DNA of 35,030 nt. Origin: an uncultured Methanosarcinales archaeon (lineage in GTDB: Archaea > Nanobdellota > Nanobdellia > Woesearchaeales > CAYSVS01). Below are positions 375-19,414 of this stretch, one piece after another. The stretch is from the NCBI GenBank assembly GCA_964434475.1, contig CAYSVS010000009.1, positions 1-35,030 on the forward strand. The letters run 5' to 3'. Made by a program: the position numbers and the translations under genes. The notes under the pieces were generated by a model. The model was given only the letters and a program-made list of their open reading frames with translations, was not told the DNA's origin and searched no databases. Position 1 is the first letter of the stretch, and every line of letters starts with the position of its first letter.

Positions 375-1151
375 TTATTTTTTAGGAATTTCTACTTGTT
401 CTTCCATAGCTGCTTTTTTGTCATCTTCTGAAACTGTAGAAGCTTCCTTTTTTGGTTCTTCTTTATGTTCTGTTTTATCTTCCTTAAGTTCAGGTTTAGA
501 AGCTTCTTTTTTTGGTTCTTCTTTATCTTCTGTTTTATCTTCCTTAATTTCAGGTTTAGAAGCTTCTTTTTTTGGTTCTTCTTTATCTTCTGTTTTATCT
601 TCCTTAATTTCAGGTTTTTCTTTTACTTCTTCTTTAGTTGTCTCTTTTTGAGGAGGTTCTTCTTTTTTTTCTTCTGCATTAAGATTATCTTTCTTTGGCT
701 CTTCTTTAGCTTTTTCCTCAAAACCTGCTGCTTTTTCCAGTTCGCTGGCTTCTGTTTTTTTCAATTCTTCTGTTTTTTTCTCTTCTGGTTTCTTCTTGCT
801 ACTCTTTTTCTTAAGATCTGCCAGCTTCTGTTTTATCTCATCAGTTTTATTCTTTGGCTCTTCTTTCTTTTCCTTAACTTCTGTTTTGACTATATCAAAC
901 CCTTCAAGCTCAGCGTATACTTTTCCGTCATCCTCTTTCAATACATTTACCTTGACATGATGAGGAGGGGATTTTATACCTTTGCTCCAAATAGCTTCGT
1001 TAAGATTCTTGCCTATATTTATGTTTTCACTTTTCATGTTTTTCATTAAAAACTGTTTAAGTGCTTTAGTCGCTTTTTTAGCTCTTTTATATTTTGGGCT
1101 TTTTAGCCACTCTTTTCTTAAAGGAATGTTGTAAGTTCTTTCTATTGCCAT
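375..1151 (-). CDS. rpl31e: 50S ribosomal protein eL31 with long Lys/Glu-rich C-terminal tail
   Basis: N-terminal ERTYNIPLR...KRAKKA...LNEAIWSKGIKSPP is the L31e signature; follows eL39; GGTGA RBS upstream. Confidence 0.95.
   Translation of the reverse strand: MAIERTYNIPLRKEWLKSPKYKRAKKATKALKQFLMKNMKSENINIGKNLNEAIWSKGIKSPPHHVKVNVLKEDDGKVYAELEGFDIVKTEVKEKKEEPKNKTDEIKQKLADLKKKSSKKKPEEKKTEELKKTEASELEKAAGFEEKAKEEPKKDNLNAEEKKEEPPQKETTKEEVKEKPEIKEDKTEDKEEPKKEASKPEIKEDKTEDKEEPKKEASKPELKEDKTEHKEEPKKEASTVSEDDKKAAMEEQVEIPKK
438..617 (-). repeat. In-frame 60-bp tandem repeat, three copies (KPEIKEDKTEDKEEPKKEAS)
   Basis: Sequence lines 421/481/541/601 are near-identical at 60-nt period. Confidence 0.95.
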
Positions 1152-2729: not shown

Positions 2730-2850
2730 ATTAACACCCGATACGTGTGTTTACGTTCTTTTTTAAATTTATTGTTGTGTTTAATTATTCATTATAATAA
2801 ATATATGTTCTAGCATAATCTTTATAAATATGCTTAAGATAAATCATTTG

Positions 2851-5800
2851 ATGATAAATTACAAAAAAAAGCCAGATACAGAAAAGAAAATAAAAAAGAT
2901 TCTGCATCCTGTAGTTGCTAAGTGGTTCTTCAGAAAGTTCAAGAATTTCTCGCTTCCGCAGTTATATGGTGTTATGGAGATACACCAAAGGCAGAATATT
3001 CTAGTTTCAGCTCCTACTGGTGCAACCAAAACATTGACTGGCTTCTTAAGCATACTGAATGAATTGGTTGATAGTGCAGATAAAGGAATACTGGAAAATA
3101 AGGTATATTGCGTATATGTTTCTCCATTGAAGGCATTGAATAATGATATATCTCGGAACTTATTAGAACCATTGAAAGAAATTGAAGAATTATATGGAAA
3201 AGAATTAGGTATTCGTGTTGGAGTAAGAACTGGAGATACAACACAGAAAGAAAAAGCGCAGATGCTGAAAAAACCTCCTCATATCTTGATTACCACTCCT
3301 GAATCTTTGGCTATAATGCTTACTAGTCCTAAGTTTTCTGAACATCTAAAAGATGTGTCTTGGATAATCATTGATGAAATACACGCATTAGCTGACGGAA
3401 AAAGGGGCGTCCATCTTAGTTTAAGCATAGAAAGATTGGATAAATTAAGTAGTCATATGACTAGGATAGGGTTGAGTGCAACAGTCGCTCCATTAGATGA
3501 AATAGCAAAATTTTTAGTAGGTTATGAAAATAGAGGATTAAGACCTTGTAAGATAGTGGATGTACAATTTATCAAAGAACTAGATATAAAGGTTCTTTCA
3601 CCTGTAGATGATCTGATAAATACTCCTCACGAAGTTATGCATTATAAGATGTATAAGCTGATAGATAAGTTGGTTCAGAAGAATAAGACGACGTTAATAT
3701 TTACTAATACAAGAGCAGCAACTGAACGTGTTGTTGATAACTTAAAGCATAAGTTTCCCAAAAACTATAATAATCTTAATATTGCAGCGCATCATGGATC
3801 TTTATCTAAGGAACATAGGCAAGAGACAGAGCAGGCGCTTAAAGATGGAAAATTGAAGTGTGTTGTTTGTTCAACTAGTTTAGAATTAGGTATAGATATA
3901 GGGTACATAGATCTTGTTTTGCTGCTTGGTTCTCCTAAATCAGTAGCTAGAGCATTGCAAAGAGTTGGCAGAAGCGGACATAAATTACATGCAATAACAA
4001 AAGGAAGGATCATTGTTTTGGATAGAGATGATCTTGTGGAATGTGCTTGCTTGTTGAAGAACGCTATGGAGAAGAAGATAGATAAGATCCATATACCTAC
4101 TTTATGTTTAGATGTTCTAGCACAACAGATACTAGGGATAATATTATCTGGATCTATGAATATAATGGAATTATATGAGATGGTTAAGAAAAGCTATTGT
4201 TATCATGGATTGCCTTATGATGATTTTTTACAGACTATAGAATTTCTTGCAGGAGAATTTTCTAGCTTAGAAGCAAGGCATGTATATGGAAAGATATATT
4301 ATAACAGAGATACTGGAGAGATAAGAAGAAGAGGAAAGATGACTCGTGTCATCTATATGACAAACATTGGCACAATCCCTGACCAAACAGGTATTAAAGT
4401 AAAGATTGGAGATAGGATTATAGGAGTAATAGGTGAAGGTTTTTTGGAAAAGCTAAGGCCAGGAGATGTTTTTGTTCTTGGAGGTAATACCTATATCTTT
4501 AAACATTCGAGAGGGATGGTTGCGCAAGTTAGTGTAAGTGTTGGCAGACCTCCTACTGTTCCTCATTGGGTAAGCGAGATGCTGCCATTAAGCTTTGACC
4601 TTGCTAATGATATAGGACGATTTAGGCGGCTTATAGAAGATAAGTTCAAGCATAAAAAGCCAAAAAAAGAGATTATGAAGTTTATCAACGATTATCTTTA
4701 TGTTGATTCAAAAGCTGCGAAAGCAATATTTAATTATCTAAGAGAACAATATGATTATATCGATGATATTGCTTCTGATAAGAAGATTGTTATTGAGAAC
4801 TACTCAGATAATAATAGGTATTATGTAATATTCCAGACCATGTTCGGCAGAAGAGTCAATGACTGTTTGTCAAGAGCTGTAGCTTATGCTATTGCTAGAA
4901 CTCAGAAACTCAATGTGGAGATAGGAATAAATGACAACGGATTCTATGTTGCAAGTGAGAAAAAATTAAATGCTTTGAAGGAATTTAAGATGCTTAAGTC
5001 TGAAGAGTTAGTTGGTGTGATGAACCTTGCTATAGACAAGACTGAAGTGTTCAAAAGAAGATTCAGGCACTGTGCAGCAAGAGCATTGATGATATTGAGA
5101 TTCTATATGGGTAGGAAAAAGACAGTGGGTAGAGCTCAGGTTAGCTCGATGCTGTTGATGCATGCATTAAGGAGGATAGACGAAAATTTCACAATACTTA
5201 AGGAAGCGAAAAGAGAGGTTTTGGAAGATCTTATGGATATAGATAATGCTAAGAAAGTCTTGTCAAGGATTGAGCAAGGCAAAGCGCAGATCAAGGAAGC
5301 GACAACACAGATACCATCGCCTTTTGCGTTTAAGTTGATAGCTGATTCTTATACTGATATAATGAAAATAGAAGATAAGATAGAATTCTTGAGAAGGATG
5401 CATTCTCTTGTCATAGCAAAGATTGCACTGCAGAAAGGAAAGAAAAAAGAAGATATAGAATTTTCTTTGCCGTCTGTTAAAAGCGAGGATGTAGTAGACA
5501 GCTATGAGATGGAGATGGAAGCTATACAGAAATTATCTGCAAAGAAATTGAGGATGGTAAGGGAATTGGATATCGAGAAAAAAATACCATTGGATGTTAA
5601 GCTTGATCTATTAAGGGTAATAAAAAATAAGAAAGATATGGATACAGATGTTGCTGACAGCATAAAGAAGCATGAAGCTGTGATAAGAAATTTCTGGAGC
5701 AAGGATCTGGCAGAATTTATCCTGAAAAAAGCATATGATGTTATAGATTATAGAAAGGTATGGGATGAGGATATAGAAGATCATTATCAGCAGGAGAAAG

Positions 5801-6021
5801 AGGTTACGACGAAATTACTTGTTGATCAGATGCTTAAGGTTCAGAAAAAGCTGGAGATGCAACCAGAGATATTTTATGATTTTGAAAGGCTTATAGAAGG
5901 TCATAGGGAAGGATTTGGTAAGAAATTTTTGAAGTATTTCAAAGAATTGATGTCAGATAGAAAGCTTTCAAATGTATGGCCTAAGGAACTAAGAGAATTT
6001 TTGATGAGTATTGATCTATAA
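2851..6021 (+). CDS. lhr: Lhr-family SF2 ATP-dependent helicase (start 2830 or 2851)
   Basis: YVSPLKALNND, RTGDT, ITTPESL, DEIH, GLSAT, HHGSLS, STSLELGIDIG, QRVGRSGH, IGTIPD, PSPFA. Confidence 0.95.
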   Translation: MINYKKKPDTEKKIKKILHPVVAKWFFRKFKNFSLPQLYGVMEIHQRQNILVSAPTGATKTLTGFLSILNELVDSADKGILENKVYCVYVSPLKALNNDISRNLLEPLKEIEELYGKELGIRVGVRTGDTTQKEKAQMLKKPPHILITTPESLAIMLTSPKFSEHLKDVSWIIIDEIHALADGKRGVHLSLSIERLDKLSSHMTRIGLSATVAPLDEIAKFLVGYENRGLRPCKIVDVQFIKELDIKVLSPVDDLINTPHEVMHYKMYKLIDKLVQKNKTTLIFTNTRAATERVVDNLKHKFPKNYNNLNIAAHHGSLSKEHRQETEQALKDGKLKCVVCSTSLELGIDIGYIDLVLLLGSPKSVARALQRVGRSGHKLHAITKGRIIVLDRDDLVECACLLKNAMEKKIDKIHIPTLCLDVLAQQILGIILSGSMNIMELYEMVKKSYCYHGLPYDDFLQTIEFLAGEFSSLEARHVYGKIYYNRDTGEIRRRGKMTRVIYMTNIGTIPDQTGIKVKIGDRIIGVIGEGFLEKLRPGDVFVLGGNTYIFKHSRGMVAQVSVSVGRPPTVPHWVSEMLPLSFDLANDIGRFRRLIEDKFKHKKPKKEIMKFINDYLYVDSKAAKAIFNYLREQYDYIDDIASDKKIVIENYSDNNRYYVIFQTMFGRRVNDCLSRAVAYAIARTQKLNVEIGINDNGFYVASEKKLNALKEFKMLKSEELVGVMNLAIDKTEVFKRRFRHCAARALMILRFYMGRKKTVGRAQVSSMLLMHALRRIDENFTILKEAKREVLEDLMDIDNAKKVLSRIEQGKAQIKEATTQIPSPFAFKLIADSYTDIMKIEDKIEFLRRMHSLVIAKIALQKGKKKEDIEFSLPSVKSEDVVDSYEMEMEAIQKLSAKKLRMVRELDIEKKIPLDVKLDLLRVIKNKKDMDTDVADSIKKHEAVIRNFWSKDLAEFILKKAYDVIDYRKVWDEDIEDHYQQEKEVTTKLLVDQMLKVQKKLEMQPEIFYDFERLIEGHREGFGKKFLKYFKELMSDRKLSNVWPKELREFLMSIDL

Positions 6022-6066
6022 TCATTAAAGGCATATTTTAAATACTATGTCTGTTTTTTACTTGTT

Positions 6067-6225
6067 ATGTTATTTGATGAAAAGAAAACATTGTCGATTA
6101 TTCTTATAGTATTGCTTGTTGTAAATATGATACTTTTTGGATTGCAAAAGATTAGCGCATTATCATTCTGGGGATTGATACTTACGGTGTTTCTTATAAT
6201 GAAGTTCTATATAAAGAAGAAATAA
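6067..6225 (+). CDS. Small two-TM membrane protein (52 aa, not in ORF track)
   Basis: MLFDEKKTLSIILIVLLVVNMILFGLQKISALSFWGLILTVFLIMKFYIKKK fills the gap after lhr. Confidence 0.7.
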   Translation: MLFDEKKTLSIILIVLLVVNMILFGLQKISALSFWGLILTVFLIMKFYIKKK

Positions 6226-6282
6226 TATTAGTTTTAAAAGACTAATAAATAAACTGTTTAATAAAAATAAATAAAAACAAGA

Positions 6283-6561
6283 TTATTTTTGTTTTCCTTT
6301 AACCATCAATGTACTGTTTTTTTGTGTTATAGATATCTCTGTAAGGTTGTTTATAACTATGTCATTGCCTGCTGGCAAATATATTACATTTAATCCTTTG
6401 ATATCTACTTTTCCTACTTTTTCGTAATCCAGAAACTGGTCCGGTACTTCTTTGCTTAGATGCGGGTCGTTGTCACTGAATAGATTCACAAAACAAGGAT
6501 AGTATTCTCCTTTTCTCTTTTTTCGTCCTAATATTATGCTTTTTGTTTTGTATTTTGCCAT
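6283..6561 (-). CDS. Hypothetical protein
   Basis: 92-aa ORF with upstream TTTATATA; no recognised motif. Confidence 0.7.
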   Translation of the reverse strand: MAKYKTKSIILGRKKRKGEYYPCFVNLFSDNDPHLSKEVPDQFLDYEKVGKVDIKGLNVIYLPAGNDIVINNLTEISITQKNSTLMVKGKQK

Positions 6562-6707
6562 TGTGTGATTTTTCTCCCAATGATTATATATAAATTTAAC
6601 TTATTATTACATAGTAGATATTATTTTTTGTTAAAAAACACTTCTGAAAATTCACAAAAAATTATCGAGATATATATGTGCCATTTTATTATTTGAAATC
6701 CCAAAAA

Positions 6708-8615
6708 TTATTTTTCTATTCTTACATCCAGAACTTCTTTAAATTTTCTTATTTTTTTTGTCAAGTCTTTTAGTCTGTCTTCATCTGTCGAATGCAGCTT
6801 GATTTGCAAAATAATATGGCCTTTGCTGCTTCTTGTGTTTATAGCTTTTATTATTATCCTTGCTGTTGTTATGGTGTTCAAAGCCTCTCTTATGAATCCA
6901 GGTGCGTCGTTTGCAACTATTATCAGTTCTTTTTCATATTTATCTTCCAGAATTTTCCATTTTAGCTTAGCAGTTTTAGATTGGTTTAAACTATGGATAT
7001 TAGGACACCCTTTTTTATGCACAGTTATTTTCTTGTCTTTTGTATAGAATCCTAATATCTTGTCACCTGGTTTTGGATAACAGCATTTCGAGATTTTTAT
7101 AGGTGCTTTTTTGCCTTCAATTATTTCTATTTGATCAGCTAATATTATTTGTCTTTCTTCATCTGCACTAAAGCTTTTTTTAGGTTTGTCAAATTGTATG
7201 TTCAATGCCTGTCTAATCTTTGATTTTGCCATGCTGCCTTTTACGAAATTTAGCCATTGTCTGTTAGGTTTAGCATTTTTTTGTGTAATAATATCCACAA
7301 CATCGCCTGATTCAAGCTTATGGTCCAAAGGTACAATGTTATTGTTTACTTTTGCTTTGCTGCATTTTTCACCTAAGTTGGTATGCACTTCATATGCAAA
7401 ATCTACAGGTGTAGATTTTTCAGGTAAAGATATAGGATCTCCTTTTGGTGTAAACACAATAATCTCATTTGCAAATAAGTCTAGGCTTAAATCTTCAATT
7501 ATGTCTTGTGCATCCTTGTTTGTTCTTCTCCATTCAAGCAGCTGCTTGATCCAGCGTATTTTTTGTTCGAATTTTTTGTCTCTTTCAGTGCCTTTATATT
7601 TCCAGTGTGCTGCTACACCTTCTTCAGCATAATCATGCATCTCTTTGGTTCTTATCTGTATTTCCAATAGTTTGTTGTAAGGCCCTTCTACTGTTGTATG
7701 CAGGGATTGGTAGCCGTTAGGCTTTGGATTCTTGATAAAATCCTTAAATCTTTTTTCAACAGGTTTCCATTTGTTATGGAGTATATCTAGTGCAGAGTAG
7801 CAGTTAGTTATATTATCTGTGATTATCCTTATTGCGATAAGGTCAAAGATATCATCAAATGTTTTCTTATCCTTCTTCATCTTATTATATATGCTATAGA
7901 AGAATTTTGCTCTTCCTGCAACATCTGCAGGAATATGGCTTTCTTTTAGTGTTTTCTTGACTTCTTCTATTATTTCCTGTGTTTTTTTTTCTCTTTCTCC
8001 TCTTTTTTCAGATATTCTTGCTTTAAGGTATTGATAAACTTTTGGCTCAAGGTATCTTAAACTTAAATCTTCTAGTTCTCCTTTTATGTAACCAACTCCT
8101 AGTTTGTGAGCTATAGGGGCATAGATATGCATGGTTTCCTCAGCGATCCTTTTTTGTTTGTCTGGTCTTAGATGCTTTAATGTACGCATGTTATGTAATC
8201 TGTCAGCTAATTTTATGAGCATTATTCTGATATCCTTAGAAGCTGCAAGTAATATCTTTCTGAAGTTTTCAGCTTTGTATTCTTCTTTTTTGAAGAATCT
8301 CATCTTGTCTATCTTTGTCAGTCCTTGAACCAAGCCAGCAACTTCTCCTCCGAATTCGGTCTCAATTTTATCTATCTTTACTAAGGTATCTTCAACAACA
8401 TCATGCAATAATGCAGTGCATATTGTAGCTGTATCTGCTTTTAATCTTATTAGTATTTCTGCAACACCTAAAGGATGCATAAAATAATCTTCTCCAGAAA
8501 TACGCTTTTGGCCTTTATGAGCATCTTTGGCAAAATTAAACGCTTTTCTGATAAGTTCAGAATCAGCTCTAGGATTATTATCCTTCACACTTTTGATGAA
8601 TTCGTTAAAGTCCAT
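6708..8615 (-). CDS. rel: Long RelA/SpoT homolog, bifunctional (p)ppGpp synthetase/hydrolase
   Basis: HD domain (AHKGQKR.SGE.YF.HP, ALLHDVVED, IKLADRLHNMRTL), synthetase (GRAK, DLIAIR, RFKD, NGYQSLHT, EIQIRT), TGS (FTPKGD, TPVDFAYEVHT), CCxPxPGD...H...C zinc finger, C-terminal ACT-like domain. Confidence 0.96.
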   Translation of the reverse strand: MDFNEFIKSVKDNNPRADSELIRKAFNFAKDAHKGQKRISGEDYFMHPLGVAEILIRLKADTATICTALLHDVVEDTLVKIDKIETEFGGEVAGLVQGLTKIDKMRFFKKEEYKAENFRKILLAASKDIRIMLIKLADRLHNMRTLKHLRPDKQKRIAEETMHIYAPIAHKLGVGYIKGELEDLSLRYLEPKVYQYLKARISEKRGEREKKTQEIIEEVKKTLKESHIPADVAGRAKFFYSIYNKMKKDKKTFDDIFDLIAIRIITDNITNCYSALDILHNKWKPVEKRFKDFIKNPKPNGYQSLHTTVEGPYNKLLEIQIRTKEMHDYAEEGVAAHWKYKGTERDKKFEQKIRWIKQLLEWRRTNKDAQDIIEDLSLDLFANEIIVFTPKGDPISLPEKSTPVDFAYEVHTNLGEKCSKAKVNNNIVPLDHKLESGDVVDIITQKNAKPNRQWLNFVKGSMAKSKIRQALNIQFDKPKKSFSADEERQIILADQIEIIEGKKAPIKISKCCYPKPGDKILGFYTKDKKITVHKKGCPNIHSLNQSKTAKLKWKILEDKYEKELIIVANDAPGFIREALNTITTARIIIKAINTRSSKGHIILQIKLHSTDEDRLKDLTKKIRKFKEVLDVRIEK

Positions 8616-8740
8616 AAAAAATAGAAAAAAGCAGGTGGTTTAAAAATTTATTGATAATCTTTGGTTTAAAGATTAATTTGAATCTTTTTAAAATTCAAAG
8701 TATGGTAAGATTTAAAAATAAGGTCTTAATGATGAGATAT

Positions 8741-9724
8741 ATGATATGTTTAGGGATAGAATCAACTGCGCATACTTTTGGTATAGCTATAGTAACAGAT
8801 GATAAGAAAGTTCTAGCTAATGAACGTTCTTTGTATACTACAGAAAAAGGAGGGATGATACCTGCAAAAGTTGCTAATCATCATATTGAAGTTTGCAAAG
8901 AAATAATGCAGAAAGCTTTGGATAAAGCAGGAATAAGTTTGAAAGATGTTAATCTTATCGCTTTTTCTCAATCGCCTGGACAAGGGCATGCTTTGCGTAT
9001 AGGCAGTTTTATTGCTAGATATCTTAGTTTGAAATTTAATATTCCTATTGTCGGAGTTAATCATTGCATAGCTCACTTGGAAATAGGAAATATGTTAACA
9101 GATTCAAAAGATCCTGTTTTGCTTTATGTATCTGGTGTTAACACTCAAGTTATTGCTTATGATGCAGGCAAGTATAGAATATTCGGTGAAACTTTAGATA
9201 TAGGTGTTGGCAATTTCTTAGATTCATTTGCAAGGCATATAGGATTAGGTTTTCCAGGCGGGCCTAAAGTAGAGGAGTTGGCTAAAAAAAGCAAGAACCT
9301 TATTGAGCTGCCTTATACAGTTAAAGGGATGGACTTTAATCTTGGTGGAGTACTTACTAATCTTAAACAGAAGTGGAATTCAGGCAAGTATAGTAAGGAA
9401 GATTTATGCTATTCTTTGCAGGAGTATGTGTTTGCTATGCTTATGGAGATCAGTGAAAGAGCGATGGCGCATTGCGATAAGAAAGAGCTGTTGCTTGGCG
9501 GTGGAGTAGCTTGCAACAAAAGGTTGCAAGAGATGGCGCATATAATGTGCAAAGAAAGGGATGCAAAGTATTTTGTATTGCCTAATGAGTTTAATATTGA
9601 TAACGCTGCAATGATTGCATGGACTGGGATAATTATGAATAAGGCAGGTGTTGTTACAAAGCTAGAAGATTCTAAAATAAATCCTTATGAAAGAACAGAT
9701 GAGGTAGAGGTTGTCTGGCGTTAG
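8741..9724 (+). CDS. kae1: tRNA N6-threonylcarbamoyltransferase Kae1 (KEOPS), stand-alone; probable start 8741
   Basis: LGIESTAHT, VNHCIAHLEIG, VSG.NTQ, GETLDIGVGN.LD, GGVACN, DNAAMIA, RTDEVEVVWR. Confidence 0.96.
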   Translation: MICLGIESTAHTFGIAIVTDDKKVLANERSLYTTEKGGMIPAKVANHHIEVCKEIMQKALDKAGISLKDVNLIAFSQSPGQGHALRIGSFIARYLSLKFNIPIVGVNHCIAHLEIGNMLTDSKDPVLLYVSGVNTQVIAYDAGKYRIFGETLDIGVGNFLDSFARHIGLGFPGGPKVEELAKKSKNLIELPYTVKGMDFNLGGVLTNLKQKWNSGKYSKEDLCYSLQEYVFAMLMEISERAMAHCDKKELLLGGGVACNKRLQEMAHIMCKERDAKYFVLPNEFNIDNAAMIAWTGIIMNKAGVVTKLEDSKINPYERTDEVEVVWR

Positions 9725-10530
9725 CCTAATGTTCCGCATGCTGCAAGAATATCATCGCCTTTATTTTCTCTTATGAAGGTCTTTATTCCTTTTTGCATTA
9801 ATTTTTGTTTTATTTCTTTTATTTTATGCATGTCTGTGCTTTTATAATCGCATTTGTCATGTTTGTTGTAAGGGATTAGGTTTACAAGGATATTCATCCC
9901 TTTGAATAATTCTGCGATTTTATTGATATCTTCAATTTTGTCGTTTATTCCTTGAATTAAAACATATTCAATCATTATTGGTCTGTGTCTGCTGTTTGGT
10001 ATTTGTTTTAGTGCAGTTATTATTTTTTCTATAGGATGTTTTCTGTTTATCGGCATCAATTTGTTTCTTGTTGCGTTGTTAGTTGCGTTTAAAGAAATAG
10101 CTAATCTTGTTTTTGTGTCTTTGCTTAATTGCATCATTTTATCTGGAATTCCGCAAGTTGATACTGTAATCTTCTTTTGGCTGAATTTATATTTTTTATT
10201 CAGTTCATTTATTGCAGCAACAACATTTGTGTAGTTGTCCAATGGCTCACCCATGCCCATGAATACTATTGCTGTTGGTTCTTGTTTTATTATTTTTTTA
10301 GCCTTAATATATTGCTTTAGAATTTCGTCTTTTGTCAAATCTCTCTTAAATCCTAATTCTCCAGTCTTGCAGAATGTGCATTTAAATTTACACCCTGCTT
10401 GCGATGAAATGCATAATGTTATTTTGTTTTTTAGAAAAAGTATGACTGATTCAATAAAAATATTATTATCTAGCTGGAATATTAGCTTGATTGTTTTGTC
10501 TTTAGACTTCAGGATTTTGTTCAGTTTCAT
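9721..10530 (-). CDS. rlmN: RlmN/Cfr-family radical SAM RNA methyltransferase, short form
   Basis: TLCISSQAGCKFKCTFC, MGMGEP, TVSTCG, AISL, IEYVLIQGIND, VNLIPYN, GDDILAACG. Confidence 0.88.
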   Translation of the reverse strand: MKLNKILKSKDKTIKLIFQLDNNIFIESVILFLKNKITLCISSQAGCKFKCTFCKTGELGFKRDLTKDEILKQYIKAKKIIKQEPTAIVFMGMGEPLDNYTNVVAAINELNKKYKFSQKKITVSTCGIPDKMMQLSKDTKTRLAISLNATNNATRNKLMPINRKHPIEKIITALKQIPNSRHRPIMIEYVLIQGINDKIEDINKIAELFKGMNILVNLIPYNKHDKCDYKSTDMHKIKEIKQKLMQKGIKTFIRENKGDDILAACGTLG

Positions 10531-10819
10531 CTATTCCCATTATCTTCTTTTTTTCAATCCTAAGCTGCGCAATTTCATTTCTACAAATTTCTTTAGCTTT
10601 TCTGCTTTCTTCAAGCTCTTTGTAGAGATCTTTGTTCTTTTGTATTGCGTCTTTGTATCTTATGTTTGCTTCTCTAATCTTTTGTTTTACTTCGTCCAAA
10701 GCATTCAGGTCAACATTGTGCTTGTTCTCTGGATTGTTTGCCCTTTGTCTGATAAGTTCTGTATAGCTTATCTTGCCTTCATCAATAAGCCTCTTTTCCT
10801 CGTCTGTTAAGATTGTCAT
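10502..10819 (-). CDS. Hypothetical coiled-coil protein
   Basis: 105 aa, charged helical C-half; overlaps the rlmN start. Confidence 0.7.
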   Translation of the reverse strand: MTILTDEEKRLIDEGKISYTELIRQRANNPENKHNVDLNALDEVKQKIREANIRYKDAIQKNKDLYKELEESRKAKEICRNEIAQLRIEKKKIMGIDETEQNPEV

Positions 10820-10912
10820 AGAATAAGAAAATAAGGGGTGATTTATATTGGTTTTGGTTGATTAAGGTTCCATATTCGGGGTATGTGTCATACTTTGGCT
10901 TGATGTAGTTAA

Positions 10913-13900
10913 TTAAGAGTATTTTGTTTTACAATTTATTTTTTGGTTTATGAATTCTTTTAGTTTACTTTCATCACTTCCTTTTGTGAACTCTTTCTCA
11001 GTTCCTTCTTCTATTGATATTTTTATGCTGTATCCGTATGATTTTATTGATGCATAAATCTCTTCTGCAAGATCTGTCTTGAAATCAGCACAAGTTTTTG
11101 GATTTTTAACGTTTAGTACTTGGATGATTGCATTATTGAAAGATCCTGTTACTTCATCATCATTTGTTTTAAAATTTTTTGAACTAAAATCCCACCAATA
11201 TTTTATTGTACCTTCTGGTATAATATCATACCAACTAGTTCTTAAAACATCAACTGTTATCTTTTTTGTTCTTCCTGATGTCGCTTCTTGCGCTTGCTGC
11301 TGTTCTTCAGCTTCTTCCTGTTCTTGAAATTGTTCACAAGGGTCATCACTGCATCCATATGTCTTTTCTCCTTCTGAATCTGTTATACAGCAATATTCTT
11401 TACCCTCTCCATCGCATCCATTTCCTCCCAATTGTTCTGTTTTGCCAGATGCGCATACGCAAGGGTTGCTTAGTTCTTCGCCAATGCTGCATTTCTCAGT
11501 CATATGGCATTTTCCGTCGTAACAATAATGTCCTCTTGTATTGTCGCCGCAATTTATGCTTGTTCCGCCGCAGATGCATGTTTGATGTAAATAAGTGCTG
11601 TCGCTTGGGCATGAATCTGTTTCAGGAGAAACTTTGGGTCGTATGCCTATCTTGATAGGAATGTCTTTCTGCCAAAGTAATTGGTCATTCCTTATCTGGT
11701 CTGCTGCTGTGCTATCTATGCAATTATCTGTTCCGTCTAATGCATGCCTTAACTCAAGATGTATTTTCATCTCTTTTTCCTGCTCTCCTGGTTTTGAAGG
11801 TAAAGCAACAACATTGTATGTCAATTGTTTTGCATATTCTCTTTTATTGTTCTTTACAATGTATGGCATCTGCATAGTGTTTAACTTGAATTTTATTCCG
11901 TTGCTTTCTATTATTGCGCCAGTGATATTTTTTGCATAGCCATTGCCTATCTTAATCTGATCATATTTTCCGTTAACATTGTATGTTGTTATTTTTTGAT
12001 CATTGTTTGTATCAAGCAATGTAAATTCAAACTGCACTGTATTTTGGTTGTTGTGGCTTATCAGTTCATAGCTTAATTCTTTTTGCCAGCCTTCTGGAGC
12101 AACCTGTTGCTGGAAAGATACGCCTGTTGCTCCTGTCAATTGTAGATTATCGTCTATTACAATATCATAATTTTTTGTTCCGTTGTGTTTTATCTTGAAC
12201 ACTAATGGTGAGCCTATTTTGCTTCCTGTTGAAGTTTTTTTCTCTATCCATAGGCATTGTGTCTTATCTCCTTTAACATAAATGTCGCCATTGAATTTTA
12301 ATATGTCTCCTGGATAGTATTCTGCTTTTTCTTTTGATATAGGTTCGTTGATATTTACGAAGTGTGCGCTGCCTCTTGCATCCCATAATAATTCTGTACC
12401 TTCGCAGACAAACCTTCCTGCTAAAGGGTCAAACCTGCATGTTGCAATATCTCTTGCTGTCTTGTCTTCTATAGGAAAATACCAGACTCCATCCTTATGA
12501 CCTTCTGGCAGGCATTGTTCTGCAACCTTTTTATTGTTGATATGCAACTTTACTCTTACGTGGCTGTACCTGTTGCTGCTTTCTACAATCTTAGATGTAC
12601 TTTGGTCTTCAAAATCTCCTTGGCTTAGTCTTCTGCCTATAGCCAATGGCTCTGTCATTGTTTCTTGTGTCCAGCAATCGCATCCCTGATATGGATGTGT
12701 TTCTCCAGACATAAGGCTTTTTTCACAGCTTAAGCCTTGTTCCATGGCTGTATTATCGTCTGGACAAACAAGGTCAACACTATAACCGTCAACATCACAA
12801 CCTGGAACTATATTCCATGTTGCTCTGTATTCGTACATAGCCTTATCGTTGTATGGAGTATAGCCAAGGTATTCTCTCCATGCAGGATAGCCTCCAACAA
12901 CTGTGTTGAATGTACTTGAATACGAGCCATCTATTATACTTTCAAAATCAAGACCCCAGTCTCCTGTTAATGATCCTAGACAAATCTTACGCATTATACC
13001 TTGTGTTCCTCCAGCAAGATAGTTGTCAAGAGCAACATTTCCATATTCTTTCTGCAGTTCTTCTGCACTTTCACCTAGACTTTCAAACATAGAAGTTATG
13101 GTAAGCTTAGCTCCATCAAAACCTCCTGCACCTATGCTGCTTGCGCCGTCTTCAGCAGTACAGTCTTCTGTAAAATAGCTTATCACTTGCCATAAAGCGC
13201 TGCACATATAATTATTGAACATTTCTTTGCAAATGCCTGTGTTTGCTCTTCCACTTGTCTTTACCTGTAAAAAGCAGTTATGCAATCCTTGCATTATGTT
13301 CTTTAATGTTTTTAATCTTGTATAGATTCCAGATACACACATGCATTGGAATGTTGATGTGTGCTGCTGCGGAGTAAGCATGTGCAGGTTTTCTCTATAT
13401 AATGCATTGTCTTGGCCAAAGCACGCTGGTTGATCCCTACCTTCATAATATCTGTTTTCGTTATAGCATGTTAATCCTATCTTGTCTTCTCTATAACTAT
13501 ATTTTTCGTTTGGCGCTGCTTCCTGTATATATTTACCTTCAGATATCATATCTGTGCATTGGCTTAACGCATATGGTAAAGGTTCTTCTTTTAGCTTATA
13601 TGTTGTTTCTCCATCTTTTTTTAGCATCTTTGATTTGATATAGCCAGGAATATTGTCCTCTTCAAGCAATAATGTTGTTCCTATCTTAAGAACTTCTAAT
13701 TGTGCTGGTGCAGACCCTATGGTTCCTCCACCATAAACTTTTCTTAAGAGATATTTATTGTTTCCAATGCTTTTTTCGTATACATAATGAGCTCCGTCAA
13801 ATTCATAATGGCTGTTGAAGTTTATTTTCTCGCTTCCTTCTGGAGGCTGAGGAACTAAATTAATTATTAATCCTCTTGTACTTATCTTTTCGTTGTTTAT

Positions 13901-16696
13901 ACAAGCGTGAGATTCTTTTATGGCTTGGTTAACCTCTTCAGGAGATGCTTCTTCAGTCCATTTTGCAGGTGTTTTGTGACAAAGGAATCTGTCTGCCGCC
14001 CATCTGAAAGTTTCATGCGCTTTTCTTTCTATTTCCCATGCAGCTGCGCATGCACTGCATTTTTCATCTAAATCTTTGTCGCTTAGATCATCTTGTAGAT
14101 CCTCGTCACCTTCATTCTTTTTGTGTCCAGGCTTAGGGCATTTTGTTTCTGGTGTTAAGGATTCCATCCTGCATGTTACTTTCCTATAGGTTTTTGCTCC
14201 TATCTTTGCGATCCATGCTCCGAGTGTTGCTACTCCTAAAATTTTCAGTGCAGACTCTATTTTTGGCAGAATCTTGTCAAGCTTTTCTATTGTTTGATTT
14301 GTAGTTTTAATACCGCCTTCCAAAAGCCATTCTGGTAAAACTTTTCTTGGATCTATTTTGGTATCCATAGTATATGCTATGTCCATACATTTCTTCATAC
14401 CTCTTGTTTCGCCGTTCTCTTTAAAATCAACATATACTATATACGGAAATATCATCTCATTGCCTAACAGCATATCTTTTAGTTTTTTGTCTCCTTCACT
14501 TATTTCTGTGCTGTCAAGCCTATAGCGTATGAACCATTTTGTCTTGTCTGGATTTGATTCTATTATTTCCGGAGAACCAGGCAATATCTTGCAGCTTAGG
14601 TTGTATCTCTTGTCTTTTTCTATATCTGTTGCACTGCATCTTTTATCAAGCCTTATGTCTGTTATTTGATAGTCTGTTGCACTGCCGAAGTATGAAAGAT
14701 TAAGAAGGAATTGTATGTGCTCTGTGCCTTGTTCTATCCTTTCTGGATTGAGCAAAGTAGGAGCCTGGTATTTTGCCAAAGGTATAATGTCAAAAGCCAT
14801 CTGTCCTGCCCAGCACGTTCCTATTCTGAAATTTAAAGATTTTTTTTGTGATTTTAAGCCTGCTTTATCTATGGCGACAAGGTATAGGTTAACAGCAAAC
14901 TCTTCATCTCTTATTTCGTTTCTGGTATCTTCTTCTCTTGCTATATCTACTCTGTCGGGTGTGGTAGGAAGAAAAGGTTTGTTGCTGAAATCTTGAGCAT
15001 ATTTTTCTATATTGATACCTTCTATCTTAAAATATCCTGATTCATCTGAAGATACTTCAGTAATGGATGATGTTTTGCCTTTCCTGTAAAGTTTTACTTG
15101 TATACTAGGATCAGTATATCCTTCGATAATTAGGTCTTTGCCTATGGTTCCTTCATATATGAAATATTCACCTGATGCTGCTTCTGATGGTTGTATGTTT
15201 GTAATGTCAGGAGCTGTTGTATCTTTTATTATTGTGTATTGTTTACTGTCTTCATTGCCTGCTTTATCCACAGCTTTTATTGTTATGTAATTTATGCCCT
15301 CTTCTATAGGTAAGTTTAATTCAAAATCACCTTGAGCGGGAATAGGTGCGTATTGGTATGATATTTTACATTTTTCTGGATAGTATCTTTTATCCTGCTC
15401 CTGTTCAACATCTCCTGGTTCTGTTGTGTAAGTATAAGGGTTTGACAGTGGACCTTCATTGCAATATCTGTCAACCATAGAGATTTGGTATTTGTATGTC
15501 TTGCCTGAATTTATATATCTGTCAACAAACTCAGGAGCGCTTTTTACTATGCCAAAGAATTTATCGTTTCTGTATGTTTTATAATAGTTAAAATCAGGGT
15601 GTTTGCTTTCGTTCCAGATTATTTTTATAGCTCTCTTGGAATCAGAATGTTTTCTAACTCCTGTGATAACTCTGGAAGCTTCATCAACAGTTTGTTGTAC
15701 ATTTGAGTATATTATAGATACATTTTCATTTACATAGCCTTTAACTTCTATAGAACCAACTTGTTCTACTGTTTCTGGTATGTCTGTTTCTATATCCAGG
15801 ATGGGTTTGGTATAATCTGTTTTTGTATTGTATATGTATTCTTTCTCTGTTCCGTGCTTTGTTGTAACAGTGAATTTAAGTTTATTATTGCCCTGTTCAA
15901 GCTCTACATTAGAGAAGCTAAACTTTCCTGATGCGCTTGTGCTTGATGGAGTGTATCGCCTGTTGTTTGGATCATCATTCACAATAAGTTCAACGTATGC
16001 ATAAGCAGGTGTTTTTCCTCTGATATTCATATATTTTTCATTATAGAATTCAGGTATTTCTAATTCAAGTGTAGCCGCACTATCGCCTAGTGTTTTGAAT
16101 CCGCCTTTGTTGGAATCAGTGTATTCTGTTATTATTTGAAAAAAATACTCTGTTCCAGGATCAAGTCCAATAATATTTATTTCATGATCTTGTGTGCTTG
16201 AATCTCCTACTTCAATAACTTCAAGATTGTTCTTATCTGCACTGTAATGTATCTCTGTTATTGTATCTATGTTTGTTTTCCAGGTTATTACAGCAGAATC
16301 GTCTGTTGTATTTGCTGAAATGTTTATGAATTCTAACTTAGGATATGTCTTTAATGTATAGAAATTATTGCTGTTGTTATCTATTAGAGTATAGCTTGAT
16401 GAATTTGTGGATTGAACCTGAAACTTATATTCTGTATCAGATTCAAGGTTTGAAAGTTTAATTTTATGTTCTGTTACTTTATTGTTGTCTGTTTTGTATT
16501 GGTCTAGCTCCTCTATCCCATAATCTACCCTGCTTGTTGAACCTGTTGATGTCTCCCATTTTATCTCTGCTGTTTCATGATCTATCACATTTGCATTTAT
16601 ATTTTCTATGCTTAGTTGTTCCGCAGATATTATAGGCAGAGCTAAGATTAAGCAGATTACAAATATACTGAATTGTTGTAATATTGTCTTTTTCAT
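10913..16696 (-). CDS. Giant secreted Cys-rich protein with Fn3/Ig-like domains (1927 aa)
   Basis: Sec signal; two tandem Fn3-like repeats (A.I.W.T...Y...H.I...L...TEY.FQ); Ig-like AVDKAGN/AIDKAG motifs; central hydrophobic helix; Cys clusters. Confidence 0.88.
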   Translation of the reverse strand: MKKTILQQFSIFVICLILALPIISAEQLSIENINANVIDHETAEIKWETSTGSTSRVDYGIEELDQYKTDNNKVTEHKIKLSNLESDTEYKFQVQSTNSSSYTLIDNNSNNFYTLKTYPKLEFINISANTTDDSAVITWKTNIDTITEIHYSADKNNLEVIEVGDSSTQDHEINIIGLDPGTEYFFQIITEYTDSNKGGFKTLGDSAATLELEIPEFYNEKYMNIRGKTPAYAYVELIVNDDPNNRRYTPSSTSASGKFSFSNVELEQGNNKLKFTVTTKHGTEKEYIYNTKTDYTKPILDIETDIPETVEQVGSIEVKGYVNENVSIIYSNVQQTVDEASRVITGVRKHSDSKRAIKIIWNESKHPDFNYYKTYRNDKFFGIVKSAPEFVDRYINSGKTYKYQISMVDRYCNEGPLSNPYTYTTEPGDVEQEQDKRYYPEKCKISYQYAPIPAQGDFELNLPIEEGINYITIKAVDKAGNEDSKQYTIIKDTTAPDITNIQPSEAASGEYFIYEGTIGKDLIIEGYTDPSIQVKLYRKGKTSSITEVSSDESGYFKIEGINIEKYAQDFSNKPFLPTTPDRVDIAREEDTRNEIRDEEFAVNLYLVAIDKAGLKSQKKSLNFRIGTCWAGQMAFDIIPLAKYQAPTLLNPERIEQGTEHIQFLLNLSYFGSATDYQITDIRLDKRCSATDIEKDKRYNLSCKILPGSPEIIESNPDKTKWFIRYRLDSTEISEGDKKLKDMLLGNEMIFPYIVYVDFKENGETRGMKKCMDIAYTMDTKIDPRKVLPEWLLEGGIKTTNQTIEKLDKILPKIESALKILGVATLGAWIAKIGAKTYRKVTCRMESLTPETKCPKPGHKKNEGDEDLQDDLSDKDLDEKCSACAAAWEIERKAHETFRWAADRFLCHKTPAKWTEEASPEEVNQAIKESHACINNEKISTRGLIINLVPQPPEGSEKINFNSHYEFDGAHYVYEKSIGNNKYLLRKVYGGGTIGSAPAQLEVLKIGTTLLLEEDNIPGYIKSKMLKKDGETTYKLKEEPLPYALSQCTDMISEGKYIQEAAPNEKYSYREDKIGLTCYNENRYYEGRDQPACFGQDNALYRENLHMLTPQQHTSTFQCMCVSGIYTRLKTLKNIMQGLHNCFLQVKTSGRANTGICKEMFNNYMCSALWQVISYFTEDCTAEDGASSIGAGGFDGAKLTITSMFESLGESAEELQKEYGNVALDNYLAGGTQGIMRKICLGSLTGDWGLDFESIIDGSYSSTFNTVVGGYPAWREYLGYTPYNDKAMYEYRATWNIVPGCDVDGYSVDLVCPDDNTAMEQGLSCEKSLMSGETHPYQGCDCWTQETMTEPLAIGRRLSQGDFEDQSTSKIVESSNRYSHVRVKLHINNKKVAEQCLPEGHKDGVWYFPIEDKTARDIATCRFDPLAGRFVCEGTELLWDARGSAHFVNINEPISKEKAEYYPGDILKFNGDIYVKGDKTQCLWIEKKTSTGSKIGSPLVFKIKHNGTKNYDIVIDDNLQLTGATGVSFQQQVAPEGWQKELSYELISHNNQNTVQFEFTLLDTNNDQKITTYNVNGKYDQIKIGNGYAKNITGAIIESNGIKFKLNTMQMPYIVKNNKREYAKQLTYNVVALPSKPGEQEKEMKIHLELRHALDGTDNCIDSTAADQIRNDQLLWQKDIPIKIGIRPKVSPETDSCPSDSTYLHQTCICGGTSINCGDNTRGHYCYDGKCHMTEKCSIGEELSNPCVCASGKTEQLGGNGCDGEGKEYCCITDSEGEKTYGCSDDPCEQFQEQEEAEEQQQAQEATSGRTKKITVDVLRTSWYDIIPEGTIKYWWDFSSKNFKTNDDEVTGSFNNAIIQVLNVKNPKTCADFKTDLAEEIYASIKSYGYSIKISIEEGTEKEFTKGSDESKLKEFINQKINCKTKYS

Positions 16697-18636
16697 CTTT
16701 TAGTCATTATCTCCGGTTCAGGCATCTTTTTTGAATTCTTAGGCAAGTTCATAAAAAACTCTTGCATGTATGGTGTCAAATCCTCGCTGTCAGGAATAGG
16801 TTCTATTGTGCTTACTGTATGGAACTTGATGTTTTCAGCATCCTTGACTCCTGCATTGCTTGGTTTCCATTCGCCGATATAACCTCCACTGAATTCGTCG
16901 TCTTTCATAAGGTATATCTTTAATGAATATGTATAGTCTTTGTCAGCCAATAATGTCATAGGTATAATCTCTTCTGTTTTGTCAGGAGGATAAAATCCGT
17001 ATGTTGTATGCTGCATATTTGGATTGCTTATTATAATTACAGCTGTTTCATCAGAATCTAGGTAAGTTTCTAGATCAGGGTATTCTATGTCGTGTTTGAC
17101 TACGCTATAATTGTATATTTTTTTTATAGGTGTCAAGCCTATTATCTCTGTTTTTCCATCCATAAGGTCTGTATCTATTATTTCTTTTGCTCTCTTATAT
17201 CCAGGAGCTTCAACCTGTATTAATCCGCCGTAGCATAAAGGAAGCATAAGTTCAACACCAGAATATGTTCCGCCGAACAAGTAATCTGTTGTACCTTGAT
17301 ATCCGCATTTGAACTTAAGGCATTCGAAAGACACATTAGCTCCTACCACCATACCTCCTGTAACATTATTCTTTGTCTGTATATTGATGTTCTGCGTTTT
17401 TTCGCTGCAGAACTCTTCTGAATTTGGAGCAGTTTCAAAATCAAAAGATGTTGTTGAAAAAGTCTGCCTATTTGCAATATTATGATTTATGTTGACAGGA
17501 AATGCAAAATTGAAAGTGTATTCTTTGTTATCATCTGTCTCATCATCCTTTAAAGTTACCATAACAGGATATTTCACATCATATGTAAAATGATATATTT
17601 GCATACAAAGCCATGACATATCTATTACATCTTCTACCTCTTGGCCTTGCTGTGTACCTGAAGTCATTATCATGCCGTTGTTAGGCCTTACGTTGAAATT
17701 AAAGTCCCATGAAGGGTCGAATGTTAATGATGCATGCATGTTAAGGTAGGAATCATCGCCTGTAGCATGAAAGATATAATGGTTCTTGACATATTCTTGT
17801 TCTTCAGGGATAGGCAAATAGTTTGTATCAGATATTCTTACCAAAGGTATATTCATCTGCAGCAGTTGTTTTAGCTTATCTTCAACCTTCTTGACAAACC
17901 AAATCCTTGGACTACATCTTATCTCAAAATTAGTATAAGGTATTTCAGGGTCCAGAGCTATCAAATCTATAGTTAGTTGTTCTAGCCAGGATTCTTTGTT
18001 TTCCTGTTCCATTATCTTTCTTGCCAGTTCAAGCACCTTCGATAATCTTATGTTCTTGTTTATGGTAAACCTGTTTATGTTAGATACTGTTGTATTATCT
18101 TTGCTTCTTATCTCTAAAGGCCATAATACATCATATACAACATCATCATAGCTTAGTATGACTTCTGTCTGCATATCATCTAATTGTTTAATGTTGTATT
18201 GATTTTCTAATGCAGTAAAATTATTTACGCATAGTTTTAGCTTTGTGTTCATGCTGTTCTCTAATTCGTTCTTGATAAATTCATTGCTAGGTATCCTGTT
18301 CTGGCCATTGTGCCACCAGTAAGGGATTTTTAATGTATCAAATTCAGGATGTACTGATATATAGCTGGTAGGGTCTTTTGATATCAAAAGAGGAAACTCC
18401 ATGTAGCCTCCGTTATGACCTAGAATCGCTAAATCTTTATCGCTGATTTGTTTAATGCATGTTTCTACATATCGATAGACAGGGATAATCTCTTGCGGCA
18501 ACTGAGTTCTTGCTTTTTCTTTCAGTTGTGATGTTGATTGTTGGATGAACAGCACTATAGCTACGCCTAGAAGCATAAGTATACCTATGATTATGAAAAT
18601 AGTTATCTGTCCCCTTTTTTTTAGTGTAATGCTCAT
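16693..18636 (-). CDS. Large protein with class III (prepilin-like) signal peptide; probable start 18636
   Basis: KKRG|QITIFIIIGILMLLGVAIVLFI; paralog of 24648-26756. Confidence 0.85.
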   Translation of the reverse strand: MSITLKKRGQITIFIIIGILMLLGVAIVLFIQQSTSQLKEKARTQLPQEIIPVYRYVETCIKQISDKDLAILGHNGGYMEFPLLISKDPTSYISVHPEFDTLKIPYWWHNGQNRIPSNEFIKNELENSMNTKLKLCVNNFTALENQYNIKQLDDMQTEVILSYDDVVYDVLWPLEIRSKDNTTVSNINRFTINKNIRLSKVLELARKIMEQENKESWLEQLTIDLIALDPEIPYTNFEIRCSPRIWFVKKVEDKLKQLLQMNIPLVRISDTNYLPIPEEQEYVKNHYIFHATGDDSYLNMHASLTFDPSWDFNFNVRPNNGMIMTSGTQQGQEVEDVIDMSWLCMQIYHFTYDVKYPVMVTLKDDETDDNKEYTFNFAFPVNINHNIANRQTFSTTSFDFETAPNSEEFCSEKTQNINIQTKNNVTGGMVVGANVSFECLKFKCGYQGTTDYLFGGTYSGVELMLPLCYGGLIQVEAPGYKRAKEIIDTDLMDGKTEIIGLTPIKKIYNYSVVKHDIEYPDLETYLDSDETAVIIISNPNMQHTTYGFYPPDKTEEIIPMTLLADKDYTYSLKIYLMKDDEFSGGYIGEWKPSNAGVKDAENIKFHTVSTIEPIPDSEDLTPYMQEFFMNLPKNSKKMPEPEIMTKR

Positions 18637-18637
18637 T

Positions 18638-19414
18638 TTATTTGATTTTTTTAACAACCTCTATTATGTAAAATTTGTTGAATGTCAAAAATAATAGTAT
18701 TACTATAGATGATGTAATTGTATATGCTTTGTTGTTGAATATGAATAGTTTTGCGATAATACTTAATGCAAATAAGATTATGCTTAAGCTTAAGTATGGC
18801 AAGTAAAGTTTTTTTGCTTTCTTGAAAACTATGTTTGCTGTTTCCTCTATGTATCTCTTTTTTGTAAGAAATTTTATGTATAATATAGATATAATGTTCA
18901 ATAGATATATCATTATAGGTATTATTACGAATATGTAAACAGCACTGATCACTAGGATTCCGCCAGGATAATATCGTAACTTGTCTACTGATGTAGACAC
19001 CAAGCTTAAGAGTATATTAAGTATAAAAAATACAAATATTCCTATGAAAAACAGAATAAAGTTAAGTATATAGAACTTTTTTATGAATATTTTGTCAAAC
19101 TTTTTGTTCATCAATCTTGTCCATATAATGCCTTTAATTATCGACCAATTCAGTATGGATATAAGCAACGCTATAAGTATATATATATAGAACTTTGCCA
19201 TGAATGTGTTGATTATGTTGTTACCTATGCTAGAGTTTATTGCATCAGATACAGAAGGAAGTTTTTCTATCTCTGTTGACATAATAAAACTTAAGATATT
19301 CAGTATTCCTATAAACAATATTATATGTAGTAAATCAAGTCCAAATACTATCAATCCTTTTTTTTTCATTTCCTGTAATGCTTTTTTTAATGTCTTTTTC
19401 ATCTTGTTCACCAA
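18638..19414 (-). CDS. Polytopic membrane protein
   Basis: About six hydrophobic segments. Confidence 0.8.
   Translation of the reverse strand: MVNKMKKTLKKALQEMKKKGLIVFGLDLLHIILFIGILNILSFIMSTEIEKLPSVSDAINSSIGNNIINTFMAKFYIYILIALLISILNWSIIKGIIWTRLMNKKFDKIFIKKFYILNFILFFIGIFVFFILNILLSLVSTSVDKLRYYPGGILVISAVYIFVIIPIMIYLLNIISILYIKFLTKKRYIEETANIVFKKAKKLYLPYLSLSIILFALSIIAKLFIFNNKAYTITSSIVILLFLTFNKFYIIEVVKKIK

Follow-up and report, generated by a model that had tools for sequence, protein, structure and literature searches.

The window analysed here is the whole of contig CAYSVS010000009.1 (35,030 bases), taken from the 1.5-Mb assembly GCA_964434475.1 of an uncultured archaeon of the Woesearchaeales, which consists of 148 contigs. 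It carries a complete gene for a long RelA/SpoT homologue (RSH), the enzyme of the bacterial stringent response. The product is probably a bifunctional, Rel-type long RSH that was acquired anciently and has since been kept, mostly vertically, in a single archaeal clade. The gene is intact and resides in an archaeal genome, its catalytic residues are conserved across the clade, and most of the alpha-helical (AH) domain of its C-terminal arm has been deleted in all clade members.

Domain architecture and family membership

The gene and the domains of its product, all on the minus strand, are located as follows.

6708..8615, minus strand: complete long RSH (Rel-type) coding sequence (CDS), 635 aa, ATG start; TIGR00691; 6yxa at 2.4e-149
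8094..8543, minus strand: HD (p)ppGpp hydrolase domain, residues 25-174; Pfam HD_4, 4.6e-52
7587..7916, minus strand: synthetase domain, residues 234-343; Pfam RelA_SpoT, 1.6e-42
7284..7463, minus strand: TGS domain, residues 385-444, including H411; Pfam TGS, 9e-22
7101..7283, minus strand: remnant of the AH domain, residues 445-505, with the first helix retained and the remainder deleted; from lengths, alignment and model
6981..7100, minus strand: zinc-finger/ribosome-intersubunit domain, residues 506-545; CCHC, aligning from residue 607 of Escherichia coli RelA
6720..6941, minus strand: ACT/RRM domain, residues 559-632; Pfam ACT_4, 2e-7, 32 bits against a cut-off of 27

The protein scores 692.7 bits against the NCBIfam model TIGR00691 (spoT_relA), for which the cut-off is 499.2. 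Its best solved relative is the Rel of Bacillus subtilis (6yxa), and further matches are to the bifunctional Rel enzymes 7oiw, 1vj7 and 6s2t. Scores fell far short of the cut-offs of the equivalog models for the two proteobacterial enzymes (RelA, NF008124, 442.6 against 728; SpoT, NF008303, 565.6 against 947). No second gene with a RelA_SpoT or HD_4 match was found in a Pfam search of the whole assembly.

In the hydrolase domain R38, H47, H71-D72, E75-D76, D138 and N142 align to columns that are invariant in bacterial Rel, and the synthetase domain has R235, K237, K245, D258, R263, the RFKD motif at 289-292, Y302, H306, E318 and Q320. A basic RxKD motif goes with bifunctional enzymes, and the acidic ExDD is that of RelA. 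The zinc finger is formed by C511, C512, H533 and C537, and H411 is presumably the TGS histidine that reads the CCA end of tRNA. The functional roles of the tested residues are taken by us to be those assigned in the RelSeq, Rel and RelA literature.

The protein therefore has the marks of a long RSH: the family score, the metal, ED and N residues of the HD domain, the RxKD motif together with the synthetase Asp and Glu, the TGS His, and the CCHC finger with an ACT domain. It does not have a full AH domain; only 67 residues lie between the end of TGS and the zinc finger, and the Pfam model RelA_AH_RIS reaches 22 bits, under its cut-off of 23.8. This does not exclude the protein from the long RSHs, as the AH domain varies among bacteria as well and is shortened in 10 of 135 bacterial representatives. 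The initial annotation, which described a complete long Rel with hydrolase, RxKD synthetase, TGS, zinc finger and ACT, is thus upheld by Pfam, TIGR00691 and the motifs. Its view of the motifs as intact stands; the deletion of most of the AH domain had been overlooked.

Archaeal residence of the gene

The genes around the RSH gene encode L31e, S19e, an archaeal-type Kae1, an Lhr-type helicase and MetRS. This setting among clearly archaeal genes, divergent from kae1, had been proposed earlier, and the gene calls, Pfam and NCBIfam agree with it. Kae1 shows 67-89% identity to the 120 homologues listed for it, whose readable names start with 'Candidat', 'Nan' or 'arc'. The G+C content of the RSH gene region is 0.33-0.34, which matches the rest of the window, and that of the genome is 33%. 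The assembly is rated 96.95% complete and 0.85% contaminated. No tRNA or Rfam family was found in the window.

The gene could alternatively be a bacterial contaminant, a chimeric join in the metagenome-assembled genome, or a recent lone transfer. Such an origin would fit the identity of about 49% to the Bacillota Rel over the part aligned to 6yxa, and the fragmentation of the genome into 148 contigs. However, an independent Logan contig (10,496 bp; from run X1, possibly the source sample) spans positions 4800-11084 with 0 mismatches and one 1-base length difference, at 8616, and runs unbroken through Lhr, the RSH gene, Kae1 and RlmN, which answers the concern over a chimeric assembly raised in the initial annotation. 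Pieces of 151-239 bases of the RSH gene and kae1 were also recovered, with 0-1 mismatches, in runs X2 and X3 from another sample. Among the runs listed with the locus there was no RNA run, a result that bears on expression in neither direction. The composition of the gene is like that of the window, and the context is archaeal in 20/20 loci of relatives, including those from the one-contig genomes G018 and G222. The 120 best homologues listed are 614-683 aa long and share 53-71% identity with the protein over 96-100% of its length; those that are named belong to a Candidatus Woesearchaeota, Nanoarchaeota or Nanobdellota archaeon, except P0104, which is labelled as a Thermoproteota archaeon. 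These names are the grounds for regarding the source as a DPANN archaeon of Woesearchaeota type. Chimera and contamination were rejected on composition, on the archaeal neighbours in relatives and on the independent contig. A lone recent transfer was rejected on the wide distribution across order and phylum and the single archaeal side in the tree, both of which are described below. An origin by any of these three routes is considered scarcely credible.

The base that differs at position 8616 belongs to an intergenic A-run that immediately precedes the RSH start codon; it is missing in the X1 contig, and the CDS is untouched.

Distribution across archaea

Of 61 genomes from the order, 25 have a TIGR00691 match above the cut-off, the genome of the window (G000) being counted, as do 131 of 301 genomes of the phylum, which were drawn evenly and are all at least 90% complete. 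The distribution proposed for checking by the initial annotation is thus not that of a lone transfer. Presence of the gene tracks family: it is found in nearly all sampled genomes of some families (f62, 34/36; f60, 6/6; f59, 7/7; f69, 8/8; f53, 5/5; f65, 8/10) and in few or none of others (f43, 0/24; f64, 1/12; f32, 0/5; f46, 0/5). The archaeal control genomes gave no match at E<=1e-10, in keeping with the earlier statement that model archaea lack (p)ppGpp signalling, and all 10 bacterial controls were matched.

Genomes of the same order without the long form were also inspected (G007, G035, G038, G043, G047, G033 and G057). Several have HD-only matches in open frames of about 160-220 aa, and a few match the synthetase domain alone, an indication that the order also has small genes resembling alarmone hydrolases or synthetases.

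Phylogenetic analysis

A first tree was built with FastTree from 171 rows, comprising the window copy, 20 genome-anchored copies and the 150 best representatives after clustering at 50%. One branch, with a support of 98, separates the 21 archaeal rows together with 12 short representatives and one fragment from the remaining 137 rows, 128 of which are longer than 680 aa. A second tree was built with IQ-TREE in quick mode under LG+G4, using 104 rows and 582 columns from which those of the AH domain had been removed. The archaeal rows were 41 genome-anchored copies, 13 of them from other orders of the class. The bacterial rows were 24 named sequences (at most 6 from Bacillota and at most 4 per other phylum, from 80 loci) and 39 of the 150 representatives, hand-picked so as to cover the FastTree subclades. 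A branch with an SH-aLRT of 99 separates all 41 archaeal copies from the 63 bacterial rows, and the archaeal clade is not nested within the sampled Bacillota.

An ancient transfer from bacteria to the ancestor of the archaeal clade is the most probable source of the gene, because Rel is near-universal in bacteria; the same origin is stated in PMC8407392. The best-scoring bacterial representative, P0124, has relatives that were found mostly in Bacillota and Actinomycetota, the nearest named ones being Bacillota genomes. An Atlas look-up for the bacterial representatives returned clusters of 616-665 aa in which Pseudomonadota or Spirochaetota are commonest, a coarse result that serves as a lead only.

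Conservation of residues and shortening of the alpha-helical domain

Residues were compared in an alignment of 152 members of the clade with 135 representatives from the bacterial side. The clade set comprises 120 listed homologues, which were put in the clade by similarity, length and names and not by tree, together with 20 copies taken from genomes and 12 short representatives. The tested catalytic, TGS and zinc-finger sites are retained in at least 149 of the 152, with two exceptions: position 76, occupied by D in 115 sequences, by E in 30 and by another residue in 7, and position 289, which is either R or K. Four of the synthetase residues (D258, E318, Y302 and H306) are present in 152/152, as are C511, C512, H533 and C537 of the zinc finger, and H411 is retained in all 152 and in 135/135 bacterial representatives. 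The catalytic residues that had been called intact from the one sequence are therefore intact in it and kept across the clade. Mean identity within the clade is 0.647 for the synthetase domain, 0.646 for TGS and 0.51 for the zinc finger, and ACT is the least conserved domain; this ranking follows the bacterial pattern, the absolute domain identities not being comparable between the clade and the bacterial set.

The length from the end of TGS to the zinc finger has a median of 67 residues in the clade (58-81, n=152) and of 141 in the bacterial representatives (79-203, n=135), so that approximately 75-90 residues of the AH domain are absent in all 152 clade members. In the alignment to E. coli RelA, residues 381-497 of the window protein correspond to 402-517 and residues 506-606 to 607-711, which leaves RelA 518-606 without a counterpart. 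An AlphaFold model (mean pLDDT 87.0, pTM 0.79) places helices in the AH remnant at 452-456, 461-470 and 484-493, with a loop of pLDDT <50 at 477-481, and gives the ACT region a beta-alpha-beta-beta-alpha-beta order at a pLDDT of about 84-95. Foldseek searches with the full-length model matched ribosome-bound RelA (5iqr_8, 4.5e-39), Rel (6yxa) and SpoT (7qpr), and the N-terminal half matched the Rel of Thermus thermophilus (6s2u, TMt 0.83, root-mean-square deviation 3.0).

Proposed function

The synthetase domain would move pyrophosphate from ATP onto GDP or GTP to make (p)ppGpp, and the HD domain, which is predicted to be Mn-dependent, would hydrolyse it back. The arm formed by TGS, zinc finger and ACT would set the balance between synthesis and hydrolysis, probably on deacylated tRNA at the ribosome. 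The most likely signal for this arm is a stalled ribosome carrying deacylated tRNA, because TGS, zinc finger and ACT are retained under constraint, a pattern from which the coupling is predicted. The further suggestions of the initial annotation, that the organism is host-dependent and uses the alarmone for dormancy between hosts, gain no support from the results, and formation of (p)ppGpp and a response to archaeal ribosomes or tRNA are predictions. Inheritance since the acquisition would have been mostly vertical, with losses of the gene in whole families.

The enzyme might instead be kept mainly as a hydrolase, in a housekeeping role like that of SpoT or Mesh1, with a synthetase that is weak or silent. 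It would then clear (p)ppGpp, or a related nucleotide, that comes from bacterial neighbours or side reactions. The fully intact HD residues would suit such a role, and several relatives without the long form carry only the HD-only matches given above. The synthetase residues are, however, as strictly kept as those of the hydrolase, including the four that are invariant, and the synthetase is the top conserved domain in the clade, level with TGS, which would be needless for hydrolysis alone. A hydrolase-only role is accordingly regarded as improbable.

A further alternative concerns the input and not the chemistry. The enzyme may be active and uncoupled from the ribosome, with a C-terminal arm that autoinhibits or that senses a small ligand or protein partner, as in SpoT. 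In bacterial RelA complexes the AH domain sits between the tRNA and the ribosome; this is the part that is missing throughout the clade, and the archaeal ribosome is unlike the bacterial one on which Rel evolved. Loss of the domain is also tolerated in bacteria, as 10 of the 135 representatives have linkers of 79-101 residues. Against this, the clade shows no variation at H411 or in the CCHC residues of the zinc finger, and the conservation of TGS and zinc finger is near that of the catalytic domains, as would be expected if contacts to tRNA and rRNA persist. Uncoupling from the ribosome is therefore considered somewhat unlikely. It is possible, and is put forward tentatively, that many Nanoarchaeota (Woesearchaeales and sister orders) have a ribosome-coupled stringent response, in which losing most of the AH domain would have adapted the sensor arm to the archaeal ribosome.

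Several points weigh against the reading of the protein as a bifunctional, ribosome-coupled Rel of ancient origin. The enzyme chemistry is predicted from the conservation of residues. Because the AH domain is mostly gone, coupling to the ribosome may have changed or disappeared. The trees have no root, and their bacterial side is limited to the 150 most query-like representatives and 24 named genomes, so that they reveal neither a donor nor which way the gene was transferred. Finally, rows from the same order and from the same class are intermixed within the archaeal clan of the IQ-TREE tree, which implies either some non-vertical inheritance or a lack of resolution in that part of the tree.

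Gene neighbourhood

The RSH gene is flanked at its 5' side by a divergent kae1.

8741..9724, plus strand: archaeal Kae1 (t6A synthase), divergent neighbour of the RSH gene; TIGR03722, 460.2 bits against 375
8616..8740, no strand: spacer separating the divergent RSH and kae1 genes; both start codons are preceded, at about 25-30 nt, by A/T-rich, TATA-like sequence

The open reading frame (ORF) of kae1 was called at 8651..9724 on the plus strand, with the family match starting at residue 31, and the likely start is the ATG at 8741. The gap from the RSH gene is 35 bp to the TTG of the called ORF and about 125 bp to the likely ATG. The TATA-like boxes were dropped as promoter evidence, such strings being frequent in DNA of 33% G+C.

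The neighbourhood was compared across 20 RSH loci from genomes of the same order; several of these end at contig ends, which makes the counts lower bounds. Kae1 is encoded within the fetched flanks (about 6 kb) in at least 7 of the 20 (L016, L018, L020, L021, L023, L029 and L031), and in at least 4 (L018, L020, L021 and L023) it is adjacent and divergent, as in the window. A functional link between RSH and kae1 was not adopted, since inherited gene order explains the adjacency equally well; kae1 is a synteny marker for the RSH locus. Pfam matches among the 104 neighbouring ORFs of these loci include TFB, Orc1/Cdc6, Alba, L37ae, L44e, aIF2-alpha, class I LysRS, L31e and S19e, and no partner from a bacterial rel operon was found among them. 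When a conserved partner gene was sought in the same 104 ORFs, the only recurrent matches were Kae1 (7 loci), NUDIX (3), Orc1/Cdc6 (2) and Alba (2).

Some bacterial NUDIX enzymes degrade (p)ppGpp. A NUDIX gene immediately precedes the RSH gene, in the same orientation, in L017 (7963-8442) and L024 (7922-8428), and lies just past kae1 in L018 (9002-9481), giving 3 of 20 loci in total; the hydrolase may be a partner of RSH in those relatives. None was found near the RSH gene in the window. At the other end of the RSH gene, 146 bases downstream, is an ORF of 92 aa (6283-6561, minus strand) with no family match, and homologues with 42-48% identity to it are located downstream of RSH in 2 of the 20 loci (L018 and L031).

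Other genes in the window

Convergent with kae1, and overlapping its stop by 4 bases at the 3' end, is a gene for an RlmN/Cfr-like radical SAM RNA methyltransferase of 269 aa (9721-10530, minus strand). The protein scores 276.4 bits against TIGR00048, slightly below the cut-off of 290, and is matched only from model position 72, therefore its N-terminal domain is missing. The Lhr-type helicase (2830-6021, plus strand) is 1063 aa long, and as its match to PRK13767 ends at residue 872 it has an unmatched tail of about 190 residues. The ORF for L31e (375-1151, minus strand) is 258 aa long with a family match only at residues 4-82, and the ORF of a relative from the same genus (L020) is 174 aa; the window ORF has either a long C-terminal extension or an overlong call.

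The region 10913-27487 on the minus strand looks like a large operon of surface or secreted proteins. One of the proteins, of 1927 aa, has fn3-like repeats at its N-terminus and is rich in Cys in its C-terminal half; upstream of its gene are six co-directional ORFs (654, 258, 708, 1038, 708 and 244 aa) that abut or overlap. No Pfam or NCBIfam match was found for these six.

Comparison with known systems

Approximately 40% of the sampled genomes of the phylum carry an intact and constrained Rel, which is at odds with printed claims that archaea lack the system. In the passages available, Atkinson et al. 2011 (PMC3153485) report no long RSH in archaea, and the (p)ppGpp system is called absent from archaea in 2023 (PMC10249747) and in a 2026 EMBO J paper (PMC13728122). 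If the ribosome-coupled response proposed here were true, (p)ppGpp would be a native archaeal second messenger, contrary to the 2023 and 2026 statements. An active enzyme would offer the most direct handle on a bacterial ribosome-sensing enzyme working at an archaeal ribosome, and a handle on how growth is slowed in ultra-small, possibly host-dependent archaea.

Homologues in DPANN genomes have already been noted, as the initial annotation suspected. Li et al. 2021 (mSystems, PMC8407392), in the part of the paper available, give RelA/SpoT for 69.0% of Diapherotrites and 41.7% of Woesearchaeota, with lower shares in Pacearchaeota (21.3%) and Nanoarchaeota (19.0%), and predict that it came from bacteria. 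The 41.7% for Woesearchaeota fits the 25/61 and 131/301 found here. In that part DPANN RSH is covered by one sentence and a supplementary tree, and domain completeness, residue conservation, kae1 synteny and the AH deletion are not mentioned. Many of the 120 listed homologues also carry the GenBank name 'bifunctional (p)ppGpp synthetase/guanosine-3',5'-bis(diphosphate) 3'-pyrophosphohydrolase [Candidatus Woesearchaeota archaeon]'. A full-text literature search on alarmones in Woesearchaeota, DPANN or archaea returned no study of these RSH enzymes, and no mention of the AH deletion was found in the available passages on archaeal RSH. As the family has been published and annotated, a single gene adds little to it. 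The family, its annotation and its bacterial origin are already public, and the feature of note is the AH deletion; this shortening of the sensor arm across the clade is the only under-described feature, and is possibly new.

Among solved enzymes, the Rel proteins of Bacillota (B. subtilis 6yxa and 6htq; Staphylococcus aureus 7oiw; RelSeq 1vj7) have their domain order, RxKD motif and catalytic residues in common with the window protein. They are about 730 aa long, whereas it has 635 and is without about 85 residues between the first AH helix and the zinc finger. E. coli RelA is monofunctional, with a degenerate hydrolase. On the ribosome (5iqr, 5kpv and 5l3p) its TGS, zinc finger and ACT align with those of the window protein, which, unlike it, has an intact HD site. 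The AH region is also reduced, to 79-101 residues, in the short bacterial long RSHs (P0131, P0132, P0133, P0154, P0163, P0167, P0173, P0192, P0218 and P0265), which are dispersed over several places among the bacterial rows of the trees; in four of the six inspected (P0167, P0192, P0218 and P0265) the gap is filled by charged, low-complexity linkers.

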